64,000 bases of DNA. Source: an uncultured Chloroflexia bacterium. Its GTDB lineage: Bacteria; Chloroflexota; Ktedonobacteria; Ktedonobacterales; Ktedonobacteraceae. Every line of letters starts with the position of its first letter. Positions within the stretch are counted from its first letter, which is position 1. A model generated the notes under the pieces. It was given only the letters and a program-made list of their open reading frames with translations, was not told the origin of the DNA and did no database searches. This document shows positions 13,391 to 35,804 of the stretch, piece by piece. Location of the stretch: contig OY969433.1 in assembly GCA_963699315.1 (NCBI GenBank), positions 767,579-831,578 on the forward strand, written 5' to 3'. The position numbers and the translations under genes were made by a program.

Positions 13391-13419
13391 GGTGAGAATT
13401 CTAAAATGTTTTTCTCACC
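13391..13419 (-). terminator. Hairpin downstream of the small membrane protein gene
   Basis: An 8-bp stem (ggtgagaa / ttctcacc) encloses a 13-nt loop. It shares a ~29-nt conserved 5' block with the yqeY terminator. Confidence 0.5.
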
Positions 13420-13446
13420 GGACTGATCTCGAATACGACTAGACAA

Positions 13447-13719
13447 TTAATGAGTTCGCTGCCTTTTACTAGAGATATAGCCGCCAATACTCATAACTAC
13501 CCCGAAGGCAAGCATCAATATACCCCACCATAAATTAATATTAATACCATCACTACGGCTATAATCAACCGGACCGAACAATCCATAGAGCACAAGCACA
13601 AGGCCAATCACACCAATTGTTGCTCCAATGGTCAATGCAATCGACATGCGTTGTGTCTGGCCCACTTTTTCCATACCTTGAGGATCATTCTGACTCATAA
13701 CTATCACCTTTCCATGCAT
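13447..13719 (-). CDS. Small two-TM membrane protein translationally coupled to the symporter
   Basis: Its ATG overlaps the symporter TAA (TAATG at 13717-13721). It has two hydrophobic helices. Confidence 0.7.
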   Translation of the reverse strand: MHGKVIVMSQNDPQGMEKVGQTQRMSIALTIGATIGVIGLVLVLYGLFGPVDYSRSDGININLWWGILMLAFGVVMSIGGYISSKRQRTH

Positions 13720-17135: not shown

Positions 17136-17244
17136 CTCTCTGACTCATGTATGCTTTCATCAACTCCCGCTATGAGATACAATGAAAGATACGTTCTCCA
17201 CGATAGGAAAGCACTTCTATCGCTATAATTTTAAGGAGTATTCA

Positions 17245-18822
17245 ATGACTACTGTATTTGAAAGTGCTTTATCGCATGCTCAAACACCATTTATAAATGA
17301 GCCCTTTACTGATTTTTCCAGAGAAGAAAACAAACGCGCTCAAGCAACAGCACTGGAACAGGTAAAAAAAGAGTCCGGTCAAACATATCCACTGATCATC
17401 GGTGGTCAAAAAGTGACAGGCGAAAAAACATTTGCCTCCATCAATCCCTCCCAACCTGATCAGATTATTGGAAACTTTGCTGCTGCCACCAGTGACCAGA
17501 CCGCGCAAGCTATTCAGGAGGCCGCAAAGACATTTGAAACCTGGAAGCACGTAGCGGCAAACGAACGAGCAGGTTATCTTTTCGCCGCAGCTGAACTCAT
17601 GCGCCAACGCCGTTTTATCATCAATGCCTGGATGATTTATGAAGTTGGAAAGAGTTGGGTTGAAGCCGATGTGGATACAGCTGAGGCTATCGATTTCTTA
17701 GAATTTTATGGGCGCGAGATGCTCCGTATGGCAGCAGAGCAACCAATTATTCATATCGAGAGCGAAAAGAATGAGTTAGTCTATATTCCGTTAGGTGTTG
17801 CAGCAGTGATTCCACCCTGGAATTTCCCATGTGCTATTCTAGTAGGTATGACCAGCGCAGCACTTGTAGCAGGCAATACAGTGGTGCTCAAACCAGCCAG
17901 CACTGCACCAGCAATTGCATACCAATTTATGCGTATACTGGAAGATGTCGGTTTACCCGCTGGAGTGGTCAATTTTCTCACGGGATCAGGAGCGACGATC
18001 GGTGATACATTGGTGGATAGCCCGGCTGTCCGTTTCATTTCATTCACAGGATCACGTGAGGTAGGACTTCACATCTTCGAACACGCAGCAAAAACTCAGC
18101 CTGGCCAACGCTGGCTCAAACGTACCATTCTAGAGATGGGTGGCAAAGATGCGATTATGGTTGATGAAACAGCAGACCTGGAAGCCGCAGCCACCAACAT
18201 AGTCTTCTCAGCCTTCGGTTTCCAAGGGCAAAAATGCTCAGCTGGCTCGCGCGCAATTATTGTCGCCCAGGTCTATGACGAGGTTGTACAAAAAGTCATC
18301 GAAAAGACGCGACAACTCGTCTCGGGAGATGTCACCAAGCCAGAAACATACGTAGGTCCAGTTGTTGATAGTAATGCCTATAAGAAGATTCTGGATTATA
18401 TCGAGATTGGAAAAAGCGAAGGTAAAATGGTTAGCGGAGGACATTCGCATGAGCCAGGCTACTTTATCGAGCCAACCATTTTTATTGATGTTGATCCCCA
18501 TGCCCGCATCGCACAAGAGGAAATCTTTGGGCCAGTCCTGACCGTCATTAAGGCCAAAGATTTTAATGATGCTTTAGACATCGCTAACGATACGGAGTTT
18601 GGGCTGACCGGATCACTCTACTCTACTGATGAGCAACATATCACACGTGCCAAAGAAGAGTATCACGTTGGCAATCTGTACTTCAATCGGAAGTGCACAG
18701 GTGCATTAGTAGGCGTCCATCCGTTTGGCGGCTTCAATATGTCAGGAACTGACTCAAAAGCTGGCGGTCGCGACTATCTATTACTTTTCACTCAGGCCAA
18801 AGCCATCTCAAGAAAAATATAA
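17245..18822 (+). CDS. rocA: L-glutamate gamma-semialdehyde (1-pyrroline-5-carboxylate) dehydrogenase
   Basis: ATG 17245 lies behind AAGGAG. The protein is close by eye to Bacillus RocA (EPFTDF..., ADVDTAEAIDFLEFYGREM), with catalytic ELGGK-type EMGGKD and FGFQGQKCSAGSR. Confidence 0.9.
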   Translation: MTTVFESALSHAQTPFINEPFTDFSREENKRAQATALEQVKKESGQTYPLIIGGQKVTGEKTFASINPSQPDQIIGNFAAATSDQTAQAIQEAAKTFETWKHVAANERAGYLFAAAELMRQRRFIINAWMIYEVGKSWVEADVDTAEAIDFLEFYGREMLRMAAEQPIIHIESEKNELVYIPLGVAAVIPPWNFPCAILVGMTSAALVAGNTVVLKPASTAPAIAYQFMRILEDVGLPAGVVNFLTGSGATIGDTLVDSPAVRFISFTGSREVGLHIFEHAAKTQPGQRWLKRTILEMGGKDAIMVDETADLEAAATNIVFSAFGFQGQKCSAGSRAIIVAQVYDEVVQKVIEKTRQLVSGDVTKPETYVGPVVDSNAYKKILDYIEIGKSEGKMVSGGHSHEPGYFIEPTIFIDVDPHARIAQEEIFGPVLTVIKAKDFNDALDIANDTEFGLTGSLYSTDEQHITRAKEEYHVGNLYFNRKCTGALVGVHPFGGFNMSGTDSKAGGRDYLLLFTQAKAISRKI

Positions 18823-18838: not shown

Positions 18839-19774
18839 TTGGCAACTATTACCAAACAATCCCCTGGTCTCTGGCACATTTCATTGCCGTTCCAGGGCGA
18901 GCATGATGTAATTGGGACATATGTCCTTGCGGGCAAAGATGAGGTTGCGCTCATCGATCCTGGTCCCACGACGACCGTTGATTCTCTGCTAGCTTCGTTA
19001 GAAGAAACTGAAATCGTTCCACAGAATGTGACGCATATTCTGCTTACGCATATTCATTTGGATCATGCTGGTGGTGTGGGAACATTATTACATCATATGC
19101 CTAACGCCAAAGTATATGTACATAGTAAAGGTGCTGCCCATATTCAGGATCCAGCCAAGCTAATTGCAAGCGCGACCAAGATCTACAAGGGTCGCATGGA
19201 AGAGCTTTGGGGTGATATTGAGGCCGTTCCGGCTGACAATGTCAAGGTCATCGATGGTGGAGACATTCTCAATATTACTGGCCGCCGCCTGGAAGTGCAC
19301 TATACGCCGGGTCACGCCAGTCATCATGTTGTCTTCTTTGATGTTCACTCTGGTGAACTTTTCGCGGGTGATGTAGCCGGCGTTTATCTGCCACCGGTTG
19401 ATTATATTCGCCCTCCAACACCACCACCAGATGTGAATATCGAGTTGTGGTCAGCCAGTATTGATCTTCTAAAGAAGCTACGCCCAGATGTAATGTATCT
19501 GGCTCACTTCGGCCCTGTACGCAATTCCGTTCCGTATTTAGAGAAACTACGTGCCCAGATCATTGCTTGGGGTGATATTGTCTTGAAAGCCTTACTAGAA
19601 GGAAAAACTGAAAAAGAGATCCTTCAAATAATGATCGAGACAACTGAACCACAACTTCAACACAAAGGCGCAAATGCACAGATGTTGAAACGCTTTGAAC
19701 TCGCGACTAATTATGAAATGACTGTTCAAGGGTATATACGCTACTGGAAAAAGCAACATGCGGAGAAATTCTAA
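18839..19774 (+). CDS. MBL-fold metallo-hydrolase
   Basis: HxHxDH motif is THIHLDHAGG. I chose the in-frame TTG at 18839, 6 nt after GGAGGAG and just past the rocA stop. The ORF-track start at 18725 would overlap rocA by ~100 nt. Confidence 0.8.
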   Translation: MATITKQSPGLWHISLPFQGEHDVIGTYVLAGKDEVALIDPGPTTTVDSLLASLEETEIVPQNVTHILLTHIHLDHAGGVGTLLHHMPNAKVYVHSKGAAHIQDPAKLIASATKIYKGRMEELWGDIEAVPADNVKVIDGGDILNITGRRLEVHYTPGHASHHVVFFDVHSGELFAGDVAGVYLPPVDYIRPPTPPPDVNIELWSASIDLLKKLRPDVMYLAHFGPVRNSVPYLEKLRAQIIAWGDIVLKALLEGKTEKEILQIMIETTEPQLQHKGANAQMLKRFELATNYEMTVQGYIRYWKKQHAEKF

Positions 19775-20361
19775 AGAGACGTCATTCTTGCAGAATCCAC
19801 GCAGCAAGTCAGGTACCCCCTCGCGTTCAGCGATGGGCTTGTAAACTGTTGGTGGCTTTACACCAGGCAGTGACAAGCTTGAACCTGACCAGACCCAGCC
19901 AGGGGTGCTTGCACCCATCGGGCTACGATAGCAGCAACGTTGAAGAACGTACCTTGGGATGCTTGCCAGTTCCAAGCTCTATAACTTTCAAGTTAACCAG
20001 CAAAACGGGGTCTATGCAGTGCTTGAGAGGTGTACGGACTGCTATCTTCGTCGAGGCAAACATTACCTTCGAAGGGCAACCAGAGAAGAGGGGTTTTGAG
20101 CCATTCCGACAGAAAATGGCTCTCCCGTAAGGGATGTTGGATCAGTTTTTCATAAGGAGGCGCACTCCTCCCCATGCATTAAATGCAGGGGTATCCGTAC
20201 GATTGAAAAAAGATGAATTGCCAGAGGACGGTTGTCCTCCGGTCACACGCTTCATAACGTATATGCCAGGGGCCAAACCGAAACTACTTTCTGCATTGAC
20301 CATGATTAGGGCGGCGTGTGCATCGCCATGATGTCCTACAATCTGAATTAACCTTCCAGCC

Positions 20362-20961
20362 CTAACGTAAAAAGGAACGCACCACTCCACAAGCCTTACA
20401 CCAACCAGATAGCTCCCCCGTATCATCGTGTGTCTGTACATTCGTCAGGCGACGCGCACAATGGCAGACGTAGCCACAAAAACGTGCGGGATTTCCTATC
20501 ACCAGAGCATGCGAAGCAACATCCCTTGTCACCACAGAACCCGCTCCAATCAAAGCAAATTCACCAATGGTCACGCCACAGATAATCACCGAACCCGCTC
20601 CAATAGAGGCACCATATTTTACATATGTGGGCACGATATCCCAATCATCTGCGCTTTTTAAGTGACCCTCAGGAGTAATAGCACGGGGATACATATCATT
20701 CGTAAAACAGACATGTGGTCCAATAAAAACGCCGTCTTCGACGGTAACCCCCTCAAAAAGTGAGGCATGGTTCTGAATCTTAACGCGCGATCCAATCGAA
20801 ACACGAGACTCAATGTACACGCCTTTACCTATATTGCATTGCTCACCCACACAAGCAAAAGAACGTATATGAGCTTGACGCCAGATGCGTGTTCCCACTC
20901 CAATCTGTACATTAGCCTCTACTTCTGCCAATGGATGAATATAAAACGCATGTTCCTGCAT
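20362..20961 (-). CDS. Left-handed beta-helix sugar N-acetyltransferase, WbpD/WlbB-like, with a C-terminal Cys4 ribbon
   Basis: Hexapeptide repeats are present. FIHPLAEVEANVQIGVGTRIW...GVKIQN-type blocks resemble UDP-GlcNAc3NA N-acetyltransferases. The tail is CHCARRL...CKACG. Its ATG overlaps the upstream TAA (TAATG). Confidence 0.85.
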   Translation of the reverse strand: MQEHAFYIHPLAEVEANVQIGVGTRIWRQAHIRSFACVGEQCNIGKGVYIESRVSIGSRVKIQNHASLFEGVTVEDGVFIGPHVCFTNDMYPRAITPEGHLKSADDWDIVPTYVKYGASIGAGSVIICGVTIGEFALIGAGSVVTRDVASHALVIGNPARFCGYVCHCARRLTNVQTHDDTGELSGWCKACGVVRSFLR

Positions 20962-22034
20962 TACACTCCTTTTTTACTCACAGCATTGGTGAAATTTTTG
21001 CGAATAAAAGGTAGCCAGCGTAATCGGGAGAAGAAGCCCCAAAGTCCTGCTGCCTCTGCTGCGACCACGAGCCAATGTTGAGTAACATCCGCCTCAATAC
21101 GCTTCAGCCGATAAGGATCGCTAGAAGAGGTATTCATACCATAGGTTGTAGTCAAAGCCCAGGTATAACCCGCATCCTTGACTGCTTGCACCACTACATC
21201 GTCTATATGTTGATCCTGCCCAACAGGATACGCAAAGGTACGTATTTGATACCCTAACTTGTGCTCAAGAACACGGCGACACTCAGTTACTTCATATTGT
21301 ATCTCTGCAGGATTAGTTAAATAAGCCAGAATAGGATGGTACATTGTATGGGCCCCAAAGGAGATCCAACCACTTTTATCCATCTCCAAGACCTGCTCCC
21401 AATTGACCGATAAACGTTCCCCATCACGATCTCGCTCATCGGGCTGAGGAGAAAGTTTGAGCTTTTCTCGTGCTATCTCAAGAAATGCCTCTCGCTCAGC
21501 TATCGACGTAGCATAACGAGCACGGTCATCAATATATTGAGCCAGAGATCCACGTGCTCTGTCATCCTGTAACCGGAAATTTTGCTGCTCCAAAGTCACA
21601 TCGGCCACGCGCGCACGACGAACCATACTCTGCCCCTCAAACCACCAGAAACGATTTCCTGCATCGATATAGCCAGGAATCAAGTAAATTGATAGAGGAA
21701 TACAGTAATTACGAGCGATCTCTGTAGCATACGTGAAATTATCCACATACCCATCATCCAACGTCACCACCAGAGAAGTTCGTCGATCAACCTTTCCACT
21801 AATGCTCCTGCCAGTGGGAGGAGTGAAAAGATCATCTAACGCCGCCTCCACATGCATGATACGATAGTGACGGCGTAAGTAGAGCAGGTGCTTCAAAAAT
21901 TGCCCATCAGCAGCAGTATGGTAATTCAAAATCACAACGTGTGGCCCTGAATGCCGCGTCCACCAACGCGCGAGAGCAACAAGGCCACTATAATAAAAGC
22001 ATCCAGCGATCAAAATCAATAACCATTTACGCAT
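20961..22034 (-). CDS. Polysaccharide deacetylase (NodB homology) with N-terminal TM anchor, copy 1
   Basis: NodB motifs are TLDDGYVDNF and GAHTMYHPIL. The N-terminal helix is LLILIAGCFYYSGLVALARWW. I chose ATG 22034 behind GAGGTG. Confidence 0.88.
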   Translation of the reverse strand: MRKWLLILIAGCFYYSGLVALARWWTRHSGPHVVILNYHTAADGQFLKHLLYLRRHYRIMHVEAALDDLFTPPTGRSISGKVDRRTSLVVTLDDGYVDNFTYATEIARNYCIPLSIYLIPGYIDAGNRFWWFEGQSMVRRARVADVTLEQQNFRLQDDRARGSLAQYIDDRARYATSIAEREAFLEIAREKLKLSPQPDERDRDGERLSVNWEQVLEMDKSGWISFGAHTMYHPILAYLTNPAEIQYEVTECRRVLEHKLGYQIRTFAYPVGQDQHIDDVVVQAVKDAGYTWALTTTYGMNTSSSDPYRLKRIEADVTQHWLVVAAEAAGLWGFFSRLRWLPFIRKNFTNAVSKKGV

Positions 22035-22096
22035 TTCACCTCTCACCCCTGCTTCGAGTAGCTCTTTAGCATACTCACCCAATCTATCTATCAGCC

Positions 22097-23347
22097 TTAA
22101 CGAGAACGTGTAACCTGTCTGGCAACTGCGCTAGCAGTGCGGCGAGCAGCAGCATCAACACCTACAACAAAACGATAAAAAGGGCCAAAACTACGCGCTG
22201 CAGAAAAACCAATGAAGTAGAGGCCAGGAATATTTGACTCAAACCAGTTATTCAATACAGGTGAGCCATGATATGTCTGTAAAGAGTCTTTCAGATGCTG
22301 ATCCAACATTGGCAACTCCTTCACATCTGCTTGATAGCCGGTGCCAAGGATAACATGATCAAACAAGAGTTCTTCACCATTTGTAAGCGTGATCTGTGCG
22401 TTTTCATCCACTGCTTTAATCTGTGCAACAACAGTATTTTCGCGGAGATCGACTTTCCCAAGCAGACGTGGCTTCAACCATGCTGATCCAGCTGGCCCAT
22501 GGAGCGACTTCAGGATGGCATTCCGACGCGTACGAGTTACCCAATACAACAGATATGGATATTTTTCTAGTAGGACATTCAACCATCCATCGCCCATACC
22601 AGCCTGCGGTGCGCGAATGTTCTGCAACCACGCGGGAATTTTGGGGTTAGCTTCGGTAAGCCAGCGGATGGTTCCACGATAGAGCACATGAACATCGCAA
22701 CCTTGTTCTTGTAGCAAGGCTGCCGTCTCTAGCGCCCCCTGACCCCCACCGATAACAGCGACTTTCTTCTGCGCAAACATTGTGAAATGACTATAATCAG
22801 ATGAATGAGACACTAAAGCTTCTGGCATATGAGCATATGATTGAGGTTTATAGAGATAATAGTGAAGTCCAGGAGCCAATACAACTGCATTGCTGGTAAT
22901 AACACGTTCATCCTCTAAAGTTATAGAATATTTATTATTACTGTATGCAATAGTTTGGATATATGTTTCATCGATATTGGGTACCGCATGCTGCTGGAAC
23001 CAGAAACCATAATCAATAAAGGTTTCACGAGCGAATGGAGCTGTTGGTAGAATACCTTTCTCTTCAAAGTATTTTGTGAGAGTGTATTTTTGCTGCGGGT
23101 CCGAGAGATTGGTTGCCCACCAATAAGAACGTAAGAGCATACCATCAGGCATATGATTACGCCAGAAATAGAGTGGCTTGCCAAAGGTTGCCACCTTCAA
23201 TCCCTGTCCCAATAAATGGGCCGAAACAGAGAGACCATAAGGGCCAGCACCAAGCACAACAACATCAAATTGGGTGGCAGGGATAACTTCTTGAATTCTT
23301 TTGGTATTGAAAGAGACGCTCACAGTTAACTCCTCCGAAAGGACCAT
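22097..23347 (-). CDS. FAD/NAD(P)-binding two-Rossmann flavoprotein (FMO / N-hydroxylase-like), copy 1
   Basis: Two dinucleotide motifs are present: VVLGAGPYG and VIGGGQGA. It is a paralog of the 25767-26993 gene. Confidence 0.8.
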   Translation of the reverse strand: MVLSEELTVSVSFNTKRIQEVIPATQFDVVVLGAGPYGLSVSAHLLGQGLKVATFGKPLYFWRNHMPDGMLLRSYWWATNLSDPQQKYTLTKYFEEKGILPTAPFARETFIDYGFWFQQHAVPNIDETYIQTIAYSNNKYSITLEDERVITSNAVVLAPGLHYYLYKPQSYAHMPEALVSHSSDYSHFTMFAQKKVAVIGGGQGALETAALLQEQGCDVHVLYRGTIRWLTEANPKIPAWLQNIRAPQAGMGDGWLNVLLEKYPYLLYWVTRTRRNAILKSLHGPAGSAWLKPRLLGKVDLRENTVVAQIKAVDENAQITLTNGEELLFDHVILGTGYQADVKELPMLDQHLKDSLQTYHGSPVLNNWFESNIPGLYFIGFSAARSFGPFYRFVVGVDAAARRTASAVARQVTRSR

Positions 23348-23349
23348 TG

Positions 23350-24693
23350 TTACTTCTGTAAAATAGTCTTATCATTCTGAGTGGTAGATGATCTTAATTT
23401 GTTTGTTGCACGATACATAAAATCCATAGTCGCGGTCCAAACAGGAGCAAGATCCCACCAATCAACGTAATCATAACCAACACGGATAAAAAAACTAGCA
23501 CAAAAATCCAGCACAGTTTGCGCTGGTGACATCACATCTGGCCTACCACGCTCCACCAGAGCTTCCACCATTGATACAATATCGCCACTGAGATAGCGCA
23601 TCCAGAGTCCTGTCTGATACCCATCAACGTGCGTAACAGGCTCTCCTAACGCCCATTGATAGAGTAAATAAGGAAAATCAACACCTGAACGAACAGCTAC
23701 TTCAACCGAAGCAGATAAACGAGGATTAATTTCCATTAGATAAGGCTTACCAGCCTGGTCGCGCCGAAACTCAACCTCAGCATAGCCTTCTAACTCAATT
23801 TCACGCACTAGGAGCTCAGACTGGATACCAATATCCATAGGCACCGCAATACTCTGTCGTAAAACCGAGGTTCCTCCCAGTGGAGGCTGTGTGCGTTTCG
23901 CCAACTGAGCAAAACGAGCGGCTATCTCGCCCTGTGCATATAGGAGACTAACTGCTTCACGTCGCCCGGTTAAAAACTGCTGAAAAAGGATTGTTCCACC
24001 GTATTGTGTGACCTTTTCAACAGCCTTACGGGCTTCATCAGCAGTCGTTACAAGTTCACAGATCAAGCGGACTCCCCGCTGTTCATGCCAGCTCCATGTT
24101 TCGATAGGCTTGATCACCGCCGGCAAACCAATATCATGGATAGCTTCGGTCACCTCGCTGACCGAAGTCACCATGACGCCCTTTGGCACACCAATGCCAA
24201 GGCGCTCGGCAATCTTTAATGTCTGATCTTTATTAGTAGCAGCCTCCAGAGCGGGTTCTTTAGCTAATGCGAGACGCGTATAGCGCTCAATCTCTGCACG
24301 ATGTTTTCTCAATACTGCCAGAGTGCCATCAGAAGATGCAAATAGCACTTTAGCACCGGCATGCTCCAATAGTTGGCGCAGATAGGTTATGTATGGTTCG
24401 GTGTGTTGACCATAGTCTGGAGCAATATACGAGCGCTTGCACCAACGAGAAGAAAATGTCGGAACATACAGAGGCTTCCTTTGCTGTCGAGTCATCTCTA
24501 ATGCAGCAATATGCATACCTCGTCGTCCAAGTGAACGTACAGCAACCAACGATTGCCGCAACATTGCATCAAGTATCAGAGCATCGTACGTTTTTTTGCG
24601 CGTATCACGAACCATCGACTCCTGTTGAAGAGTAGATGGGATAACAGGTATTGCTGATCCATACATATCGCTACTTTTTAAAGAGTCTGGCAT
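23350..24693 (-). CDS. ATP-grasp domain ligase, copy 1
   Basis: GAGGA RBS is present. ATP-grasp blocks are LPAVIKPIE, GGTILFQQFLTGRRE and YLMEINPRLSASVE. It is a paralog of the 26990-28321 gene. Confidence 0.82.
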   Translation of the reverse strand: MPDSLKSSDMYGSAIPVIPSTLQQESMVRDTRKKTYDALILDAMLRQSLVAVRSLGRRGMHIAALEMTRQQRKPLYVPTFSSRWCKRSYIAPDYGQHTEPYITYLRQLLEHAGAKVLFASSDGTLAVLRKHRAEIERYTRLALAKEPALEAATNKDQTLKIAERLGIGVPKGVMVTSVSEVTEAIHDIGLPAVIKPIETWSWHEQRGVRLICELVTTADEARKAVEKVTQYGGTILFQQFLTGRREAVSLLYAQGEIAARFAQLAKRTQPPLGGTSVLRQSIAVPMDIGIQSELLVREIELEGYAEVEFRRDQAGKPYLMEINPRLSASVEVAVRSGVDFPYLLYQWALGEPVTHVDGYQTGLWMRYLSGDIVSMVEALVERGRPDVMSPAQTVLDFCASFFIRVGYDYVDWWDLAPVWTATMDFMYRATNKLRSSTTQNDKTILQK

Positions 24694-25753
24694 ATTTTTT
24701 CCTCAATCGAGATACAATTCCCAACAAGCCAACCAGTTCCGCAGCCATGACCATCCAGTGCAGATCGACATCGCCAGGCATACGTGCTAACAGCAAAGGA
24801 TCAGTATGCTGTGTATTTTCTTGCTCAAAAGTTGTCACTGCCCATGTATAGCCAGCAACCTGCACAGCCTTCACTCCCAGCTCACCAATATGTTGAAACT
24901 TGCCCACTGGATAGGCAAAAACATGGATTGGATGACCTAATTTTTCTTCAAGGATCACGCGTAAATCCTGCACCTCACGCATGACCTCTTCAGGATCAGT
25001 CAGGTAAGCTAGAATAGGATGATTAACGGTATGTGCACCAAATGAGATCCAACCGGTTGCTTCCATTTCTCGAAGTTGTTCCCAGGTAAGAGGAATGCTG
25101 GTATCACTAGTACTCAGACTACGGGTAGGCAGAGCAACACCAAGTGTCTGTTGCACATGCGAAAGAAATGCTTCTCGTTCAACGACAGAAGAGGCATATC
25201 GAGCATGTTGATCAATAACCTTGATCAAATCACGACGCCCAGCGGGACAGGTCAATTGGTAATTTTGTCCATCCAGCGTAATTTGTTCTGCCTGAAGTTG
25301 CATCACTAATTGTGCAGCTGCCAGCCACCAGAAGTATTGTCCGCTTTCCACATAGCCTGGAATAATAAAAATGGTCATGGGAATACGATAGCACTGAGCC
25401 AATTGAAATCCAACCGTATAGTTATCCAGATAGCCATCATCGAAAGTCAGGACCAGCGGCAAACGCCGGCCCTGCCGGGCCTGATCAGGTTTGGGAGCGT
25501 ACAATTCCTCAAGAGCTGCCTCAAGGTGCATAATGTGATAGTGACGCCTGAGATAACGCAACTGCGAGGACAAATTCCCTCCTGCGTTATGATAATTCAG
25601 AATAAGAAGTTGCTTATTAGAACGTTCTTTTAGCCATAAGGCCAGGCGTGTCAAACCAGAATAATAAAAAATTACCGCAATTAATACACGCAGACGCTCA
25701 TGCATACACATCCTCTCCATTTCCCAGGCGCTATCCCCAATTATCTCTGACAT
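24671..25753 (-). CDS. Polysaccharide deacetylase (NodB homology) with N-terminal TM anchor, copy 2
   Basis: Motifs are TFDDGYLDNY and GAHTVNHPIL. I chose ATG 25753 behind GAGGTG, 14 nt after the upstream stop. Confidence 0.86.
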   Translation of the reverse strand: MSEIIGDSAWEMERMCMHERLRVLIAVIFYYSGLTRLALWLKERSNKQLLILNYHNAGGNLSSQLRYLRRHYHIMHLEAALEELYAPKPDQARQGRRLPLVLTFDDGYLDNYTVGFQLAQCYRIPMTIFIIPGYVESGQYFWWLAAAQLVMQLQAEQITLDGQNYQLTCPAGRRDLIKVIDQHARYASSVVEREAFLSHVQQTLGVALPTRSLSTSDTSIPLTWEQLREMEATGWISFGAHTVNHPILAYLTDPEEVMREVQDLRVILEEKLGHPIHVFAYPVGKFQHIGELGVKAVQVAGYTWAVTTFEQENTQHTDPLLLARMPGDVDLHWMVMAAELVGLLGIVSRLRKKYARLFKK

Positions 25754-25766
25754 AGGCACCTCATTT

Positions 25767-26993
25767 CTAGTGCCTAACATAGCGTGCAACCGCACTGGCA
25801 ACTCGGGTGCCGGATGCCTTCGCACCTACGACAAAGCGATATAAAGGACCAAAGGAGCGCACAGCGCTCAAGCCAAGGAAGTACAAGCCGGGAACGCTAC
25901 TTTCAAAGCTGGAATTCAAGATAGGAATATCCTGATCGGCCTGAATCTGCTCAGCTAATGATGGATGAAGCATGTGGAGGTTTGTGAGATGTACTTCATA
26001 GCCGGTTCCAAGCAAAACATGGTCGACCTGAAGTTTCTGACCATTCGAGAGCTCAACATCCATGCAATTATCATGAACGCGCATCTCTTTGATCGAGGTG
26101 TTCTCATACAGATGAACCTTCCCCAGCACACGCTCACGTAACCATTCAGCCGCCGCAGCTTGATAATTTGAATGGATATAGCGATCCTTTCTTGGTTGCG
26201 AGAAACGATGAAAAAGATAAGGCAAATACTCCAGAGCCCAGTTTCTCCAGCCAGGAGCAATACCTGCATTGGGTGCAACGATCTTTTCAAACAGAGAACG
26301 CTCATTCGCACGATCTCGTTCCAGCCAGCTAATGGAATGACGAGCTACCAGATGCACATTGGTAACCTCTCCATCCTCAAGCAGCAGAGCCGCATATTCT
26401 ACCGCGCTTTGTCCACCACCAATGACCAACAAACGTTTCCCTTTGAACTGACTATAATCACTATGGTCAAAAGCATGTGAGACAAGCTCTGTGGGGAAAC
26501 CACGATACTCCTCTGGGCGTTTGGTATAGTAGTACACACCGATAGCCATGACAACTGCCGCTGCGTGTACCACACGACCATCTTCCAACGTCACCACAAA
26601 CCATCCATTTTGTCGCTCGATTGAAGCAACGTACGTCTCATCGATATCTGGTACAGCATTTTTTTGAAACCAGAGCGCATAATCAAGAAAAAGGCTCATC
26701 GGAACTGGATACGGTTTCGCCAGTTTTTTTAGTTGAAAATACCGCGCAAAACTATATTTCTTTTGTGGATCAGAAAGATTTGTTGCCCACCAATGAGAAC
26801 GTAAATACATTCCCTGTGGCATATGATCACGCCACAGTTCCATTGGTTTGCCAAATACGCCAACATGTAAACCTTTCCCGATTAAGTGAGCAGCAGAGGT
26901 CAAGCCATAAGGGCCAGCACCAATAACGACCACATCATATTTTGCTACCGCTACCGATTGTTGAGATGTTTGCAGATCAGATGCTATACTCAT
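25767..26993 (-). CDS. FAD/NAD(P)-binding two-Rossmann flavoprotein, copy 2
   Basis: ATG 26993 lies behind AAGGAG and overlaps the upstream TGA (ATGA). Motifs are VVIGAGPYG and VIGGGQSA. Confidence 0.8.
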   Translation of the reverse strand: MSIASDLQTSQQSVAVAKYDVVVIGAGPYGLTSAAHLIGKGLHVGVFGKPMELWRDHMPQGMYLRSHWWATNLSDPQKKYSFARYFQLKKLAKPYPVPMSLFLDYALWFQKNAVPDIDETYVASIERQNGWFVVTLEDGRVVHAAAVVMAIGVYYYTKRPEEYRGFPTELVSHAFDHSDYSQFKGKRLLVIGGGQSAVEYAALLLEDGEVTNVHLVARHSISWLERDRANERSLFEKIVAPNAGIAPGWRNWALEYLPYLFHRFSQPRKDRYIHSNYQAAAAEWLRERVLGKVHLYENTSIKEMRVHDNCMDVELSNGQKLQVDHVLLGTGYEVHLTNLHMLHPSLAEQIQADQDIPILNSSFESSVPGLYFLGLSAVRSFGPLYRFVVGAKASGTRVASAVARYVRH

Positions 26994-28321
26994 GAAAAAC
27001 TCCTTCGCATACGGGATAATCTCTTCAATACAGCCCCTCCAACCCAATCGCGCGTAAATTCCGCCGTGGCTTGTATAGCTGGAGCTAGATCATTCCAATC
27101 AACACAGTCATAATGCATAGGCTTCAAACAAGAAAGGGCAAAACCAAGCACTGCCTGAGCTGGTGGTGCCACTCCTGGTCGCCCACGTTGTTGAATGGCT
27201 TCGATGGTGGTCATGATGTCGCCTTTAAGATAGCGCATCCAACCACCGATACGATAAGATTTAACAGTATCAATATGTTCACCTGTCGCCCATTGATACA
27301 TGAGATAGGGAAAATCTACGCCGGAACGTACTGCTATCTCTACTGAAGCGGACAAGCGGGGATTAATTTCCATCAGGTAGGGGATACCTCCTCGATCTCG
27401 ACGAAACTCAACTTCGGAGTAGCCCTCCAAATCAATCTCGCGAACCAGATGTTCAGCTTGTTTACCAGTATCGGGCGGCAGAGCAATACTTTGACGTAAT
27501 ACAGATGTTCCACCTAATGGTGGTTCAGTGCGCTTCGCCCATTGTGCAAAGCTTGCATGCACTTCATGATCGGCATACAGCAAACTAATCGCCTCACGCC
27601 GACCAGTCAGAAACTGCTGGAAAAGAATCGTGCCTCCCAGGCGTGTCAGATCTTCAACTGCGACTCTGGCCTCATCTGCAGTCATAACCAATCGTGAAAC
27701 CAAACGGGCACCACCCTCTTGAGATTCATCCCACAGCCAGGACTCAATAGGCTTGATCACTGCGGGCAAGCCTATCTCATTAAGCGCCGCCGTGACCTCA
27801 GACACAGAACTTACCGTCACTCCCCGAGGAATATTCAGTCCCAACTGCTTGGCGATCTCCAACGTCTGCTCTTTATTGACGGCAATCGCTAGTGCGGGAT
27901 CCTGAGCCAGAGCAATAGCAGTGTGCTTTCCCAAACGATCACGATACTGCCGGATCAACGCTATCGTACTGTCAGAAGATGCAATCAAAACACGAACCTT
28001 TGTATGCTCCAACCACTGTTCCAGAAAGTCGAGATAGTCCCTAGAACCACCTCCAGTCGGAGCAACAATTCCTTGCTGGCACCAACGCGAGGAGAAGGCC
28101 GGAACGCGTTGATCTGCCTCTAGGGCAGCTACAGCCAGGCCGCGCTGACCAAGTGAGCGAATAGAAACTAAAGATTGACGTAATGCCGCATCCAACACAA
28201 ATGCATCGTAACTTCTGGTTGAAACATCCAAACTCCCTTGAGACTGCATGAAAGCAGCAGACTGGGAGCTCTTTGTCGGCTCGATATCAGATGGATGACG
28301 TAGCACACAACACCTCAACAT
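26990..28321 (-). CDS. ATP-grasp domain ligase, copy 2 (start uncertain)
   Basis: It has the same blocks as copy 1 (LPAVIKPIE, GGTILFQQFLTGRREA, YLMEINPRLSASVE). No candidate start (28324 TTG, 28321 ATG, 28249 ATG) has a clear RBS. Confidence 0.78.
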   Translation of the reverse strand: MLRCCVLRHPSDIEPTKSSQSAAFMQSQGSLDVSTRSYDAFVLDAALRQSLVSIRSLGQRGLAVAALEADQRVPAFSSRWCQQGIVAPTGGGSRDYLDFLEQWLEHTKVRVLIASSDSTIALIRQYRDRLGKHTAIALAQDPALAIAVNKEQTLEIAKQLGLNIPRGVTVSSVSEVTAALNEIGLPAVIKPIESWLWDESQEGGARLVSRLVMTADEARVAVEDLTRLGGTILFQQFLTGRREAISLLYADHEVHASFAQWAKRTEPPLGGTSVLRQSIALPPDTGKQAEHLVREIDLEGYSEVEFRRDRGGIPYLMEINPRLSASVEIAVRSGVDFPYLMYQWATGEHIDTVKSYRIGGWMRYLKGDIMTTIEAIQQRGRPGVAPPAQAVLGFALSCLKPMHYDCVDWNDLAPAIQATAEFTRDWVGGAVLKRLSRMRRSFS

Positions 28322-28375
28322 CAATATGCATATGATCTATACAAAAGCATGTCAGCTTCCAATATCACATAACAG

Positions 28376-29413
28376 CTATACATCTTCTTTTTCATTAATG
28401 AATGGTTTCCAGAGCGGTGCAAAGATATGCCAGATGCCCGCAGTTTCAGCAGCGATCAAGAGCCAATGACGCCGTACATCTACTAGGACACGCTCTATGC
28501 GATAAGGATCACTGAGCGACGTCGCAATACCATTTGTTGTTGTCACTGCCCATTTATATTCTGCTTCGCGCACTGCTTTGAGAGCTTCAGCACCGATGTG
28601 TTCAGCACGACCTATCGGGTATGCGAATGTATACACTTTCATTCCTAGCTGTTGCTCCAACACTTCTCGACATGCCAGCACCTCATAGCGTACTTCGGAT
28701 GGATCTGACAAACTAGCTAAAACTGGATGGTGCATAGTATGTGCACCAAATGAAACGAAACCACTTTTCTGCATTTCATATACATCCAACCACGACATAG
28801 GCATATTATCATCTATTGCACTCGATGTGCAAGTATCAAATTCAGATATAGCTAAAGTTTGGCGCATCTGTGCTAAAAATTGTTCGCGCTCTGCTACAGA
28901 GCTAGCTGTTCGCAAGCGTGTGTCGATCAAGACAGATAATTTCTTTTGATCCTCTCTTAATTGCAAATGGTACGTGAGACCGGCAACGGTTACATCTTTA
29001 ACTTGTGCCTGCTCCACAAGATGCGTACTTTCTCCCCACCAGAAACGATCTCCGTTATCGAGATAACCAGGGATGAGAAAAATTGTGATTGGTATCTGCA
29101 ATTCAACAGCAGTTTTAAATGCGTATTGAAAGTTGTCACGATACCCATCATCAAACGTCATAACGACCGGAGTCCGGCGATGACTTTTCTGTGTTACCTC
29201 TGCATACAGCTCTTGTAAAGCGTCTTCCAGAGGGAGCACACGATAATGACGCTGCAAATAGCGCATATGCTGTCGGATATCACCCTGACTCGCTCGATGA
29301 TAATTAAGAATAATTAAATGTGAGCCCCGTCGCCGCATCCACCAACGACAAAGAGCCACCAGACCACTGTAGTAGAAAAAGGCTGCGACAACTAAACGTA
29401 CGATCCTGCGCAT
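28376..29413 (-). CDS. Polysaccharide deacetylase (NodB homology) with N-terminal TM anchor, copy 3; first gene of the minus-strand operon
   Basis: Motifs are TFDDGYRDNF and GAHTMHHPVL. The N-terminal helix is VVAAFFYYSGLVALCRWW. The start is probably ATG 29413; the ORF extends to 29452. Confidence 0.85.
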   Translation of the reverse strand: MRRIVRLVVAAFFYYSGLVALCRWWMRRRGSHLIILNYHRASQGDIRQHMRYLQRHYRVLPLEDALQELYAEVTQKSHRRTPVVMTFDDGYRDNFQYAFKTAVELQIPITIFLIPGYLDNGDRFWWGESTHLVEQAQVKDVTVAGLTYHLQLREDQKKLSVLIDTRLRTASSVAEREQFLAQMRQTLAISEFDTCTSSAIDDNMPMSWLDVYEMQKSGFVSFGAHTMHHPVLASLSDPSEVRYEVLACREVLEQQLGMKVYTFAYPIGRAEHIGAEALKAVREAEYKWAVTTTNGIATSLSDPYRIERVLVDVRRHWLLIAAETAGIWHIFAPLWKPFINEKEDV

Positions 29414-29928
29414 ACAATCCTTTCTCAACAAAGCCCATTTACAGTGTTGCAATTACAGATGAATTTTCATAAAGGCCGACGCTGAAGTTAGCCAGGAGAG
29501 AGGACAATAGAACATAAAACCTGAATAGAATGTTACCTTTATCAAAATACCATAGGTGTTGTATCAAAGAGATGTTTATATTGGTGTAGAATCAGTGAAC
29601 CACATTACAAAGATGTAGAGAAATCTATGGAACGTCAAATAGTCACGCTCCGGGTATGAGTAAGTGCAGATACAATAGCGAGCATCAGGGATTACTATCT
29701 AAACAAAAGAGTACTGTCCTAAACACCTTCTCAACACCAGCAACAACCTGATTAGCAATCCATAGGGAGTATCTTCTAAAAGGAGCGCATGTAAAAATCG
29801 CCGCAAACTTTTTGCTGTAGCACAGTTATTTCTTTCTGAGTGCAATATATAGATATTTTTATAAAGAAGCCTGCTAACGTTATTTTCAACGTGCTACAAA
29901 TCTTATCATTGGTAAGGATGGTATTTAA

Positions 29929-31365
29929 ATGCAGAGTACACTTAATCGCTATATACTACTGACAAAGCGCTGGACATGGATAGTACTGCTTGGTATGGTT
30001 ATTTGTAGTGGAACGACATATTTTGTCACCAAATTTACGATGCAGCCTGTCTATGAAGCACAGACGCGACTACTGATCACGGTGCCAGGAAGCTCACAAA
30101 ATGATAGCACCGTGGCAGCTATTGCTCAGCAACCGGCATATAATGCATTAGTTACTAATTCAAACATACTCGCTCCCGTTGCCGCTGATAATGGCATGAG
30201 CCTCACACAATTAAGTGACATGGTAAAAACGCAATCTGATACCAACACACCATTTATCGATGTGCTCGTCGACAACAGTAATCCCCAACTGGCGACAAAA
30301 CTATCAGAAGAAATTGCAAAAAGCTTCACTACCTACGCCTATACAAAACTGGGTAGCCAGGCTACGTTTGACATTATTGACCCTGTCGTTCCTACGACTC
30401 CGATCAAACCCCAACCACTGCAAGATGCCATTATAGGTGCCCTCGTAGGGCTGGGTCTTGCACTTGCGATCATTATTATTTTTGAATGGATTGATGATCG
30501 TTTAACTTCACCGGACGATGTGAATAAATTGCTCGGTCTCGACGCACTCACCATCATTCCGGCGCTCTCACGCAGGCAGCGCGCCCAGAATGCTGAAAAT
30601 ACTCCAGAACTCGCAGAAGGTTGTCGTATCCTTTGTGCTAATCTCAACATGACACAAATGATCCATCCATTCAAATTAGTAATGATAACAAGCGCGATGG
30701 CAGGTGAAGGAAAAAGCACCATCGCCGCCAACACAGCAGCATTTCTGGCCATGTCAGGAAAACACGTGCTATTAGTAGATGCTGATCTGCGCCATCCGGC
30801 CCTGGATAAGCACTTCCAGCTGAGCAATCAGACAGGTCTATCCAACGCCTTCCTGGAAAAGTGGACACAGATAGAAGCTGATCTGGATGGTCAAGCAACC
30901 GATATACCATCATTACGGGTATTAACAGCTGGCACACTACCATCCAATCCATCCGAATTGCTGCAGTCACAGTTAGCAAATCAGATCTTCAACCACTTTC
31001 GGAACACGTCAAAATTCGATTATGTCATCTTCGATTCTCCACCACTACTGCCAATTGCCGATGCGCAAATAATAGCTGCATATATGCAAATGACTATTCT
31101 GATTGTCGATGCATCCAAAACTCCTCGCAAAGCTATGCTACGAGCCAAACGAATACTCAATCGAACAGGCACACACATTCTAGGAGTCGCATTAAATAAG
31201 AGTAATTGGCGGGAATATGGTGAAGTGCATGACTACTTGAGCAATATTCAATCACGTCCACGAGCTGACTTGAACATGGTCATGCCCCCTAGTACGCCAC
31301 CCATCAACCATTCGATCGATGCTGCAAATACCGCCGTTCTTCCATCCACAAACAACAAACATTAA
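29929..31365 (+). CDS. Wzz chain-length-determinant domain fused to a BY-kinase-type P-loop ATPase
   Basis: The N-terminal TM plus periplasmic-type Wzz region is followed by a second TM (IIGALVGLGLALAIIIIF). ATPase motifs are Walker A SAMAGEGKST, A' LLVDADLRHP and B DYVIFDSPP. Confidence 0.88.
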   Translation: MQSTLNRYILLTKRWTWIVLLGMVICSGTTYFVTKFTMQPVYEAQTRLLITVPGSSQNDSTVAAIAQQPAYNALVTNSNILAPVAADNGMSLTQLSDMVKTQSDTNTPFIDVLVDNSNPQLATKLSEEIAKSFTTYAYTKLGSQATFDIIDPVVPTTPIKPQPLQDAIIGALVGLGLALAIIIIFEWIDDRLTSPDDVNKLLGLDALTIIPALSRRQRAQNAENTPELAEGCRILCANLNMTQMIHPFKLVMITSAMAGEGKSTIAANTAAFLAMSGKHVLLVDADLRHPALDKHFQLSNQTGLSNAFLEKWTQIEADLDGQATDIPSLRVLTAGTLPSNPSELLQSQLANQIFNHFRNTSKFDYVIFDSPPLLPIADAQIIAAYMQMTILIVDASKTPRKAMLRAKRILNRTGTHILGVALNKSNWREYGEVHDYLSNIQSRPRADLNMVMPPSTPPINHSIDAANTAVLPSTNNKH

Positions 31366-31465
31366 CCGAAGCGTTATAAAGCAGCAAGTAGTGAAAACGT
31401 CATGTATACACGCTTCCATAATTACATACAAGCTATCGCCTACATACAAAGGAAAATAAGGAAGA

Positions 31466-32767
31466 ATGAAAAGTCAACTCTTAGATAAAATATCCTCTCG
31501 ATCATTACAGGTGGCGATTATTGGTCTTGGTTATGTGGGACTACCGTTGGCAACAACCTTTGCTGAGGCTGGTTTTCATGTCACTGGTATTGATGTTGAT
31601 CAGAGCAAAGTTGATCTCGCCAATAAAGGGCAAAGTTATATCTCTGATATTGACAGTAATGATCTTCAAAGGCTGATCGCAGCGGATCGACTCACATTTA
31701 CAACAGATTTCAATGCCCTCGATCAGGTTGATGCGATCAGTATCTGTGTACCAACTCCATTACGTAAAACTCGCGAGCCGGACATCTCGTATATTCTCTC
31801 TGCGATGCAACAGCTACGTGCGCACCTCCATAAGGGTCAACTTATCGTTCTCGAGAGCACAACCTATCCAGGAATGACCGATGAAGTGCTGCTACCCGAT
31901 TTGGAATCTACAGGATTAAAGGTCGGAACAGAATTTTTTCTGGCTTTCTCACCCGAGCGTATTGATCCAGGTAATCCACATTTCGACACCAAAAATACAC
32001 CCAAAGTAGTCGGTGGTATTACACCTGTCTGTACCGAAGTGGCTCAGGCATATTACGGTGCCGCCATTGATCACATTGTGCCTGTCTCTTCTGCCCGTGT
32101 AGCAGAAATGACCAAATTGCTCGAAAACACGTTTCGAGCAGTGAACATCGGTCTGGTGAATGAGATTGCCATCATCTGTGAAAAACTCAACATCAACGGG
32201 TGGGAAGTCATCGATGCAGCAGCCACAAAACCATTTGGCTTTATGCGGTTCCAGCCTGGACCAGGCCTGGGCGGTCATTGCATCCCCATTGATCCACATT
32301 ATCTATCCTGGAAACTAAAAACGCTCGACTACACAGCACGTTTCATCGAATTAGCCACTGAAATTAATAGTAGCATGCCTCACTATGTCGTAAATAAAAT
32401 CACAGATGCACTCAATGAACAGCGCCGTAGCCTGAATGGAGCGACAGTACTTGTGCTTGGGCTTGCATATAAACGTAATGTCAGCGACATACGCAAGTCA
32501 CCTGCACTCGATATCATTCAAGATCTACTTAAACATAAAGCAGTTGTCCTCTACAACGACAACTATGTTCCTTCACTGACACTCAAGGAACAAACATTAC
32601 ATTCACAGCCACTGAGCAGTGGCCTACTACAGGCGGCAGATTGTGTCGTCCTGGTCACCGATCACAGCTATTATGACATCTCAACTATTGTTCAGGAAGC
32701 ACGCTCTGTCGTCGATACCCGCAATATGACAAAAGGCATCAAGGACGCCAAAATATTTTTGCTCTAA
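31466..32767 (+). CDS. Nucleotide-sugar 6-dehydrogenase (UDP-GlcNAc/UDP-ManNAc dehydrogenase, WbpA/WecC-like)
   Basis: AAGGAAG RBS is present. The Rossmann motif is IIGLGYVGLPLA and the catalytic Cys block is GLGGHCIPIDP. Confidence 0.9.
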   Translation: MKSQLLDKISSRSLQVAIIGLGYVGLPLATTFAEAGFHVTGIDVDQSKVDLANKGQSYISDIDSNDLQRLIAADRLTFTTDFNALDQVDAISICVPTPLRKTREPDISYILSAMQQLRAHLHKGQLIVLESTTYPGMTDEVLLPDLESTGLKVGTEFFLAFSPERIDPGNPHFDTKNTPKVVGGITPVCTEVAQAYYGAAIDHIVPVSSARVAEMTKLLENTFRAVNIGLVNEIAIICEKLNINGWEVIDAAATKPFGFMRFQPGPGLGGHCIPIDPHYLSWKLKTLDYTARFIELATEINSSMPHYVVNKITDALNEQRRSLNGATVLVLGLAYKRNVSDIRKSPALDIIQDLLKHKAVVLYNDNYVPSLTLKEQTLHSQPLSSGLLQAADCVVLVTDHSYYDISTIVQEARSVVDTRNMTKGIKDAKIFLL

Positions 32768-32802
32768 ATGTTTATGCACACGATAGAACGGTAAATAAAA
32801 GC

Positions 32803-35772: not shown

Positions 35773-35804
35773 CTGTAAGAGAAAATCTACCAAGGAGTAT
35801 ACGC

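Follow-up and report, generated by a model that had tools for sequence, protein, structure and literature searches.

The window analyzed here is a stretch of 64,000 nucleotides from an uncultured Chloroflexia bacterium of the family Ktedonobacteraceae (assembly GCA_963699315.1, contig OY969433.1, positions 767,579 to 831,578), and all coordinates given below are those of the window. Between positions 20362 and 29452 its ORF map contains eight back-to-back ORFs on the minus strand that encode three predicted polysaccharide deacetylases (PDA), two ATP-grasp ligases (AG), two flavoproteins resembling flavin monooxygenases (FMO) and one acetyltransferase (AT), in the reading order PDA3-AG2-FMO2-PDA2-AG1-FMO1-PDA1-AT. 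The first gene of the operon, PDA3 (28376-29413), encodes a CE4/NodB-type deacetylase of 345 aa from an ATG at 29413. It is followed by AG2 (26990-28324; the public gene call begins at 28306, giving 438 aa), a putative ATP-grasp carboxylate-amine ligase, by FMO2 (25767-26993), a two-domain FAD/NAD(P)H flavoprotein that resembles N-hydroxylating monooxygenases, and by the CE4 deacetylase PDA2 (24671-25753; 360 aa in the public call, within an ORF that reaches 25825). The second set consists of the ATP-grasp ligase AG1 (23350-24693, 447 aa), the flavoprotein FMO1 (22097-23347, with an alternative start at 23323 that gives 408 aa) and the CE4 deacetylase PDA1 (20961-22082, with a likely start at ATG 22034, MRKWLL...). 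The last gene, AT (20362-20961), encodes a predicted left-handed beta-helix N-acetyltransferase of the WlbB/WbpD type.

A preliminary description of this DNA had reported the same gene order and three very tight junctions, all of which were recovered from the ORF map and the sequence. The PDA1 stop and the AT start share a TAATG at 20961, and the AG2 stop overlaps the FMO2 start in an ATGA at 26990-26993. The third junction, a 2-nt spacer between AG1 and FMO1 (23348-23349), depends on the start chosen: it holds if FMO1 begins at ATG 23347, but the public gene calls place the start 24 nt later, at 23323, and the spacer then becomes 26 nt. In addition, the ends of PDA2 and AG1 overlap by 23 nt (24671-24693) and the gap between PDA3 and AG2 is 51-69 nt. 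The entries for PDA1, PDA2 and FMO2 in the ORF list extend upstream past the likely starts. A divergent intergenic region (29414-29928) separates this minus-strand tailoring operon from plus-strand polysaccharide assembly genes, a layout also found in seven related loci (L003, L004, L006, L008, L010, L011 and L084). A promoter and terminator scan of positions 19700-30000 gave counts equal to the shuffled expectation (19 vs 16.6 and 9 vs 8.7). In an ENA assembly of the same organism (L001, ERZ25039467 contig_19455) the PDA1, AT and aldehyde dehydrogenase genes are fragmented, at 12612-14331 and 15871-17449 of that contig. All three are intact in the window, and the fragmentation probably represents frameshift errors of that assembly, not pseudogenes.

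The genes of the operon are related to each other. The three PDA proteins share 43-48% identity over about 345 aa (E values of 1e-102 to 1e-120), FMO1 and FMO2 are 46% identical (1e-135), and AG1 and AG2 61% (7e-175), similarities that are far above chance. Diverged as these copies are, they retain the identical runs quoted previously, all of which are present in the translations: GGTILFQQFLTGRREA, PPLGGTSVLRQSIA, YLMEINPRLSASVE and AVRSGVDFPYL, RSxWWATNLSDPQxKY, and FYYSGL and ILNYH. In neighbour-joining trees AG1 and AG2, FMO1 and FMO2, and PDA1, PDA2 and PDA3 fall into separate clades, each together with its positional orthologues from several Ktedonobacteria. Since every paralog clade holds the positional orthologues of these genomes, the duplication predates their divergence. 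Within the Ktedonobacteria the source organism stands close to Dictyobacter. All eight genes lie in the same order in Dictyobacter kobayashii (L003), D. aurantiacus (L004), Ktedonosporobacter rubrisoli (L010), a metagenome-assembled genome (L011) and a soil metagenome contig (L084). Against the latter, which is about 80% identical, dN/dS was 0.09-0.15 for all six module genes; values by gene were 0.10 for PDA3, 0.115 for AG2, 0.09 for FMO2 and 0.15 for PDA2. Family alignments that include the window copies show the catalytic residues to be invariant or at least 90% conserved, namely the Asp-Asp, His-x3-His and N-terminal Tyr-His of the PDAs, the Lys, Glu, Asn and Arg of the AGs and both dinucleotide motifs of the FMOs, so that every copy has kept its catalytic motifs, as had been claimed. 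The number of modules in Ktedonobacteria varies from one to three: one locus carries a single module (L012), most genomes two and one (L005) probably three, and modules lacking the FMO gene occur in L009 and L015. Taken together, the separate orthogroups, the conserved gene order, the low dN/dS and the invariant catalytic residues indicate that the duplication is old and maintained under purifying selection, in agreement with the preliminary description.

All three PDA proteins match the Pfam family PF01522 (Polysacc_deac_1) with 62, 62 and 67 bits for PDA1, PDA2 and PDA3 (cut-off 23.1). The motifs T(L/F)DDGY and GAHT(M/V)xHP are present in each of them, which leaves the catalytic Asp and the Asp-His-His metal triad intact. 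Residues D93, D94, H229 and H233 are invariant among 33 homologues, and PDA3 retains the invariant YH, DDGY, HTxxHP, YPxG, R and D..H residues. Homologues of PDA1 are about 350 aa long and bear the database name 'polysaccharide deacetylase family protein'. Among NCBIfam models, those of PgaB/IcaB (TIGR03938 and TIGR03933) scored 28-35 bits against equivalog cut-offs of 322 and 248, so the relation to these enzymes is remote and function need not be common. A family profile compared with PDB sequences matched 6dq3 best (3e-11; its table entry reads 'Polysaccharide deacetylase' and we take it to be PplD), together with 4v33, BC0361/BA0330, IcaB (4wcj) and PgaB/BpsB, and it was the C-terminal half that aligned well.

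Each PDA has one N-terminal helix that carries the conserved FYYSGL motif. In 106 homologues this helix begins at about residue 4 and has a mean Kyte-Doolittle value of 1.71 (range 1.1-2.4), with about 3.0 positive charges before it, the free N-terminal amine counted, and 3.4 Lys or Arg residues after it. Because these charges are nearly equal on both flanks, the positive-inside rule does not decide the topology of the protein. The catalytic Tyr-His strand lies about 12 residues past the helix, and the active site must therefore sit at the membrane surface. Some related deacetylases encoded beside distant AG genes have no hydrophobic N-terminus and start at the catalytic YH strand (L052, L055, L060, L027 and L039), and in that of L071 the FYSG helix is polar; these relatives would favour a cytoplasmic or peripheral location. 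The preliminary description had pointed to a puzzle, namely that deacetylases with a membrane anchor are encoded among enzymes that depend on ATP and NAD(P)H and must be cytoplasmic. The moderate hydrophobicity of the helix, the basic residues on both of its sides and the helix-less relatives soften that puzzle but do not solve it; the nearest solved relatives are extracellular enzymes.

Both AG proteins match ATPgrasp_Ter (PF15632) and CPSase_L_D2 (PF02786) above the gathering scores; for AG2 the PF15632 match reached 43 bits (cut-off 29.1). Across 24 diverse members of the family K155, E321 and N323 are invariant, and K195 and R325 at least 90% conserved. A Foldseek search with an AlphaFold2 model of AG1 (pLDDT 83) returned generic ATP-grasp enzymes only, these being biotin carboxylase, 2pn1, RizA and BL00235, with L-amino-acid ligases among them, and so gave no hint of the substrate. 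The best match of the family profile among PDB sequences was the uncharacterised protein 2pn1 (4.6e-22), followed by carbamoyl-phosphate synthetase. AG1 and AG2 are thus predicted members of the ATP-grasp superfamily, similar to carbamoyl-phosphate synthetase (CPS) and without a characterised close relative. In spite of the name of PF15632, no tellurite-resistance (Ter) genes were found in the window or in 80 related loci, where the neighbours are glycan genes, and the match represents sequence similarity only.

The FMO proteins match Pyr_redox_3, Pyr_redox_2 and Lys_Orn_oxgnase (PF13434) above the gathering scores. PF13434 gave 45-46 bits (cut-off 21.3) and Pyr_redox_3 scored higher; in FMO2 the latter reached 90 bits and Lys_Orn_oxgnase 46 bits over profile positions 3-338 of 339. 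The translations carry GAGPYG, GGGQ(G/S)A.E and DHV(I/L)LGTGY, corresponding to two dinucleotide motifs and an ATGY-type motif. With an AlphaFold2 model of FMO1 (pLDDT 81), Foldseek gave the best full-length cover for the ornithine and diamine N-hydroxylases PvdA (query-normalised TM-score, TMq, of 0.70), SsDesB (0.69) and SidA (0.67-0.70 as a group), which have a three-domain fold, and also matched the small bacterial monooxygenase SMFMO (0.66) and the bacillithiol disulfide reductase YpdA/Bdr (TMq 0.60; TMt 0.75). The scores of YpdA and SMFMO are similar to those of the N-hydroxylases when normalised by their own length, and identity to all these matches is below 20%. The profile comparison with PDB sequences was less decisive, as ferredoxin-NADP reductase, SMFMO, TrxR and DesB all fell between 1e-8 and 1e-13. 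The YpdA model TIGR04018 was the best or second-best NCBIfam match of the FMOs, with 52 and 59 bits against a cut-off of 339.9. Members of the YpdA/Bdr family carry a conserved active-site cysteine. Among 44 FMO homologues no invariant Cys was found, and their FAD motif GAGPYG has an invariant Tyr. A disulfide reductase was considered as the principal interpretation of FMO and rejected on account of the missing conserved Cys and of a score far under the YpdA cut-off. Sequence and model together suggest that FMO is a class B monooxygenase-like enzyme, most like the N-hydroxylases though not a demonstrated member of that group, and its reaction would be an N-oxygenation.

In order to see how the three families are distributed, relatives of AG1 were searched with HMMER among 1.84 billion cluster representatives (50% identity). 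This revealed 8388 relatives, 317 of them below 1e-30, and several of the best were about twice the normal length. Pfam annotation of the cluster representatives identified AG~FMO fusions (P0242, P0255, P0256 and P0258), a GNAT~AG~FMO fusion (P0257), an AG~PDA fusion (P0246), GT4~AG fusions (P0243, P0250 and P0253) and an AG~methyltransferase fusion (P0244). We also scanned one genome per GTDB species with the AG alignment, which yielded 80 loci whose ORFs were searched with the window proteins. These come from Ktedonobacteria, Gemmatimonadales, Thermoplasmata, Solirubrobacterales, Acidimicrobiia, Acidobacteriota, Patescibacteria, Bathyarchaeia, Proteobacteria and others, and were classed as 13 loci of Ktedonobacteria, 36 other loci with a close AG (at least 200 bits) and 32 with a distant AG (about 30% identity), neighbours being counted within 10 kb. 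An FMO gene was present near AG in 10/13 Ktedonobacteria, 34/36 other close loci and 2/32 distant ones. In 44 of the 49 close loci it lay directly 3' of AG or was fused to it, and this holds in at least five lineages, archaea included (the close loci belong to Ktedonobacteria, Gemmatimonadales, Thermoplasmata, Solirubrobacterales and Acidimicrobiia). A PDA gene was found in 12/13, 11/36 and 14/32 loci of the three classes, and a PDA or DegT gene in 12/13, 14/36 and 17/32. A UDP-sugar 6-dehydrogenase gene occurred in 8/13 Ktedonobacteria, 2/36 other close loci and none of the 32 distant loci. Most loci hold glycosyltransferases, phosphoglycosyl transferases, DegT aminotransferases, tyrosine kinases or Wzy-type proteins, and no glycan-type families appeared among the scanned neighbours of two of them (L030 and L014). 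The adjacency of these genes is accordingly not random, as both the neighbourhoods and the fusions show. However, the trio put forward in the preliminary description needs redefinition: the conserved functional unit is AG with FMO, PDA is a frequent but separable partner, and the genes belong to a context of glycan assembly that is not specific for uronic acids.

Further partners of this unit are lineage-specific. In eleven loci of Solirubrobacterales and Acidimicrobiaceae (L025, L026, L029, L030, L033-L035, L037-L039 and L048) AG and FMO form a single ORF of about 800-830 aa. Seven of these loci encode a FemAB-like GNAT (PF13480) after it, while a GINT1_N-like protein and a Wzy_C protein of large size come after it in six each, and neighbour clustering found these same partners in Solirubrobacterales, where the order is fused AG~FMO, PF13480 GNAT, GT4, GINT1_N-like protein and Wzy_C protein. 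In L034 two PF13480 GNATs flank the fused gene. Three Acidobacteriota loci (L052, L055 and L060) have a compact cassette of PDA, GT4, AG, DegT, phosphoglycosyl transferase and epimerase genes, in which no acetyltransferase was detected.

The AT protein matches Hexapep in Pfam above the gathering score, and its best PDB match is WlbB (3mqg/3mqh, E value of 1.3e-38 over residues 4-170), followed by WxcM-like proteins and QdtC. The AT gene also ends the module block in L003, L004, L008, L010, L011 and L015. Pfam searches of the flanking region (29929-49237) identified further glycan assembly and precursor genes: a tyrosine kinase/chain-length regulator (29929-31365), a UDP-sugar 6-dehydrogenase (31466-32767), a 989-aa plus-strand fusion of a MurJ-type flippase with a Wzy_C O-antigen ligase/polymerase domain (32803-35772), two plus-strand AsnB-like glutamine amidotransferases of 646 aa each (38483-40423 and 40510-42450), an SDR epimerase (44912-45865), a GnnA-like 3-dehydrogenase of the GFO family (45931-46944, minus strand), a DegT aminotransferase (47032-48165, minus strand) and a Bac_transf phosphoglycosyl transferase (48446-49237), as well as four GT4 glycosyltransferases in two adjacent pairs. 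The MurJ~Wzy_C fusion is kept in the related Ktedonobacteria L006, L008 and L010. The GFO protein matched 3c1a, a putative oxidoreductase, first and 7bvj second (1.8e-23), the latter being presumably the UDP-GlcNAc 3-dehydrogenase GnnA, and the DegT protein matched QdtB and WbpE. From these similarities AT is predicted to be a WlbB/WbpD-like 3-N-acetyltransferase whose 3-dehydrogenase and aminotransferase partners are encoded at 45931-48165, and together with the UDP-sugar 6-dehydrogenase the predicted enzymes of the locus could yield 2,3-diacetamido sugars or the corresponding uronic acids. The flanks thus encode a predicted Wbp-type synthesis of 2,3-diamino sugars, but the link with amino-uronic sugars proposed earlier does not extend beyond Ktedonobacteria, since elsewhere a dehydrogenase gene rarely lies near AG.

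Other observations concern the surroundings of the operon. The two AsnB-like proteins are 43% identical, having diverged about as far as the PDA and FMO copies, and form a second old tandem pair in the locus. The GT4 genes are paired as well, and the locus in its entirety may serve to produce two modified residues that resemble each other. In the loci of D. kobayashii (L003, 3537-5198 of that locus, plus strand) and D. aurantiacus (L004, 3490-5172, plus strand) the divergent region upstream of PDA3 has an extra ORF of about 550-560 aa that the window lacks, and the product of the former matches DMFA2_C (PF20254). Farther away, a 627-aa ORF on the minus strand (57420-59303) had no Pfam match at E values of 1e-5 or below and lies directly upstream of a gene for a CHAP-domain protein (59300-60073). 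On the other side, a plus-strand ORF (15648-17135) encodes a 495-aa protein with a thioredoxin-like domain and NHL repeats; it adjoins the locus in D. kobayashii as well and has no evident link with the glycan operon.

We tentatively propose, giving it somewhat less than an even chance, that the operon is an uncharacterised tailoring cassette that acts on the cytoplasmic side on an amino-sugar surface polysaccharide, freeing an amine, ligating a carboxylate and oxygenating a nitrogen at two positions. The substrates, the order of the steps and the cytoplasmic location of the deacetylases are what we infer here. The flanking genes would provide a 2,3-diacetamido sugar by means of the 3-dehydrogenase, the aminotransferase, the WlbB-like acetyltransferase and the 6-dehydrogenase. 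A CE4 deacetylase, which its N-terminal helix would keep at the surface of the membrane, would strip an N-acetyl group from the nucleotide- or lipid-linked sugar, and the ATP-grasp ligase would convert a small carboxylate, either an amino acid or an organic acid, into an acyl phosphate and join it to the freed amine. With NAD(P)H and O2 the flavoprotein would oxygenate a nitrogen atom, which might be that of the sugar amine, before ligation, or one in the appended group. Ligase and flavoprotein would work as one unit, and the two diverged modules with the third deacetylase would serve two positions or two residues of the repeat unit. This scheme fits the survey because AG associates with amine-making enzymes rather than with uronic-acid genes. 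There are precedents for the removal of an N-acetyl group in the cytoplasm followed by re-acylation of the amine, as in the pairs NodB and NodA, MshB and MshC, and LpxC and LpxD.

Similarity with NodB/NodA and LpxC/LpxD lies in a NodB-fold deacetylase, with D-D and H-x3-H in all three PDAs, encoded beside a potential amide-forming enzyme. The operon differs from them in that this enzyme is an ATP-grasp ligase instead of an acyl-carrier-dependent acyltransferase and in the added flavoprotein, whereas the PDAs differ from NodB in being of the permuted PgaB/IcaB type, with an N-terminal YH motif, the helix and an insert of about 100 residues. Concerning the flavoprotein, the siderophore N-hydroxylases (PvdA, SidA, DesB and IucD) gave the best structural matches of FMO1, and they share with it the PF13434 domain and the FAD/NADPH and ATGY-type motifs. 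As in the IucD/IucB/IucA-C system, FMO is coupled genetically to an ATP-dependent carboxylate-amine ligase and, in P0257, to a GNAT. However, the loci described here are glycan assembly loci without the setting of siderophore export and uptake, the ligase is an ATP-grasp enzyme and not an IucA/IucC synthetase, and the identities are below 20%. The sugar pathways WbpA/B/E/D and WlbA/C/B, which lead to UDP-2,3-diacetamido-2,3-dideoxy-glucuronic acid, and GnnA/GnnB resemble the locus in the likeness of AT to WlbB, of the aminotransferase to WbpE and QdtB and in the presence of a 6-dehydrogenase, but they explain the flanking genes and AT only and have no counterparts of PDA, AG and FMO.

Several points weigh against the tailoring cassette. 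In 25/36 close loci outside Ktedonobacteria no PDA gene lies within 10 kb of AG-FMO, so the pair does not require deacetylation. In fold and profile AG comes closest to carbamoyl-phosphate synthetase, biotin carboxylase and PurK, all of which activate bicarbonate, and this leaves room for an acyl donor that is not an amino acid. The identity of FMO with every N-hydroxylase stays under 20%, and it is matched almost as well by YpdA, by TrxR-type reductases and by ferredoxin-NADP reductase. Three more points bear on the location of the deacetylases: the enzymes nearest to them, 6dq3, BC0361/BA0330, IcaB and PgaB/BpsB, act outside the cytoplasm; their N-terminus (MRKR plus about 19 hydrophobic residues) also suits a signal anchor; and the AG~PDA fusion P0246 retains the helix between its domains, an arrangement equally suited to AG inside and PDA outside.

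These last points are what would be expected if the two activities belonged to different compartments, an explanation that we consider unlikely but that deserves serious weighing. The cytoplasmic AG and FMO would amidate the C6 carboxyl of a uronate, with an amine that FMO might first N-hydroxylate, and the PDAs would be anchored ectoenzymes that de-N-acetylate the exported polymer in the manner of PgaB, IcaB and PplD; the genes would be interleaved since each module serves one residue, without feeding from enzyme to enzyme. The Ktedonobacterial locus does make uronic acids, by its predicted enzymes, and holds the two AsnB-like amidotransferases, and the helix between the domains of P0246 is as expected of a membrane-spanning protein. 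A proven precedent also exists in the C-terminal amidoligase of Cj1438, from the HS:2 capsule of Campylobacter jejuni, a TupA-like ATP-grasp domain that is fused to a GT2 and amidates GlcA (PMC11800379). It shares with AG the ATP-grasp type, the likely formation of an amide on a sugar while a surface polysaccharide is being built, and the fusion to a glycosyltransferase, as in GT4~AG. However, the Cj1438 domain belongs to the TupA-like ATP-grasp family, for which AG has no Pfam match, being ATPgrasp_Ter/CPS-like instead, and it has no flavoprotein partner. It also uses the carboxyl group of a uronate, whereas the AG family does not track uronic-acid genes: a UDP-sugar dehydrogenase lies near AG in just 2/36 and 0/32 loci outside Ktedonobacteria, and uronate amidation as a general function of AG was down-weighted for that reason. 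With respect to the PDAs, an external location is opposed by the three to four Arg or Lys residues right after the helix, with the catalytic strand about 12 residues on, and by the helix-less homologues that adjoin AG in other phyla. Among proteins of solved structure, PgaB, IcaB and PplD come closest in sequence to the PDA family profile, but the PDAs score far under the equivalog cut-offs and their genes are interleaved, and once fused, with those of cytoplasmic ATP-dependent enzymes.

A further reading of the cassette, which we regard as improbable, is that it builds a hydroxamate or another N-O group directly on the polysaccharide. A deacetylase or an aminotransferase would expose an amine, the flavoprotein would make a hydroxylamine from it, and the ATP-grasp ligase, or a GNAT or beta-helix acetyltransferase, would acylate the hydroxylamine to an N-hydroxy-N-acyl amino sugar. 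If so, the glycan would bear a siderophore-like metal-binding group, at two positions per repeat unit in Ktedonobacteria, and the fused AG~FMO proteins of Gemmatimonadales, Solirubrobacterales, Acidimicrobiia and Thermoplasmata would make it as well.

It is very doubtful that the operon makes a small-molecule glycoside similar to mycothiol or bacillithiol, with a GT4, a deacetylase, an amino-acid ligase, an acetyltransferase cap and a flavoprotein as recycling reductase. This series of enzyme types mirrors MshA/B/C/D plus Mtr and BshA/B/C plus YpdA/Bdr, GNAT~AG~FMO and GT4~AG fusions exist, and YpdA, which FMO resembles in fold (TMt 0.75), is among the first NCBIfam matches of the FMOs and second in Foldseek as Bdr/YpdA. 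Yet the TIGR04018 scores of 52-59 bits against a cut-off of 340 and the lack of an invariant Cys in 44 homologues speak against a recycling reductase, the deacetylases are of the CE4 and not of the LmbE/MshB type, and the ligase is an ATP-grasp enzyme and not one of the Cys-tRNA-synthetase-like kind. Moreover, the genes lie in polymer-export loci, with a tyrosine kinase, the MurJ~Wzy fusion and a phosphoglycosyl transferase, and a single metabolite does not explain the tandem duplication of the module. Finally, that these are independent tailoring enzymes without functional coupling, repeated by an accident of segmental duplication, is hardly credible, for although unrelated tailoring genes commonly gather in polysaccharide loci and most AG-FMO loci outside Ktedonobacteria have no PDA, AG is fused to FMO, to PDA and to GT4, FMO adjoins AG at 44/49 close loci in different phyla, each of the three PDA positions keeps its gene order and its orthogroup, and start and stop codons overlap.

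The preliminary description had not recognised the combination of deacetylase, ATP-grasp ligase and flavoprotein as a characterised pathway, and we reached the same result. No NCBIfam equivalog model came near its cut-off for PDA, AG or FMO, database names are generic, and no description of the trio was found in the openly available full-text literature. A search of publications on O-antigen ATP-grasp amidoligases, on ATP-grasp enzymes combined with N-hydroxylases and on the archaeal AglU threonine ligase yielded nothing relevant except the Cj1438 precedent; a lasso-peptide paper among the results was unrelated. The finding is not categorically new, because none of the three folds is unusual and polysaccharide loci often contain uncharacterised genes for tailoring enzymes. 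What is new is a conserved, often fused unit of an ATP-grasp and an N-hydroxylase-like protein in the glycan loci of many poorly studied phyla, and its Ktedonobacterial form, an anciently duplicated arrangement with three deacetylases.

The unit is widespread: its homologues in metagenomes number in the thousands, its genes are set in glycan loci, and it occurs in organisms such as soil Chloroflexota, Gemmatimonadota, Actinomycetota and Thermoplasmata, whose surface polysaccharides are chemically almost uncharted. The double module of Ktedonobacteria, with two diverged copies in one operon, represents a natural experiment for the mapping of substrate specificity, and the compact Acidobacteriota cassette (L052, L055 and L060) may be a simpler system for the study of a possible acylation of a sugar amine by AG. 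Even if the decoration should be an ordinary one, its description would close a gap in the annotation of three large groups of 'family proteins'. Once solved, the reaction would define a new type of glycan decoration, whether amino-acyl, hydroxamate or otherwise N-oxygenated, and would allow sequence-based prediction of glycans in uncultured lineages.

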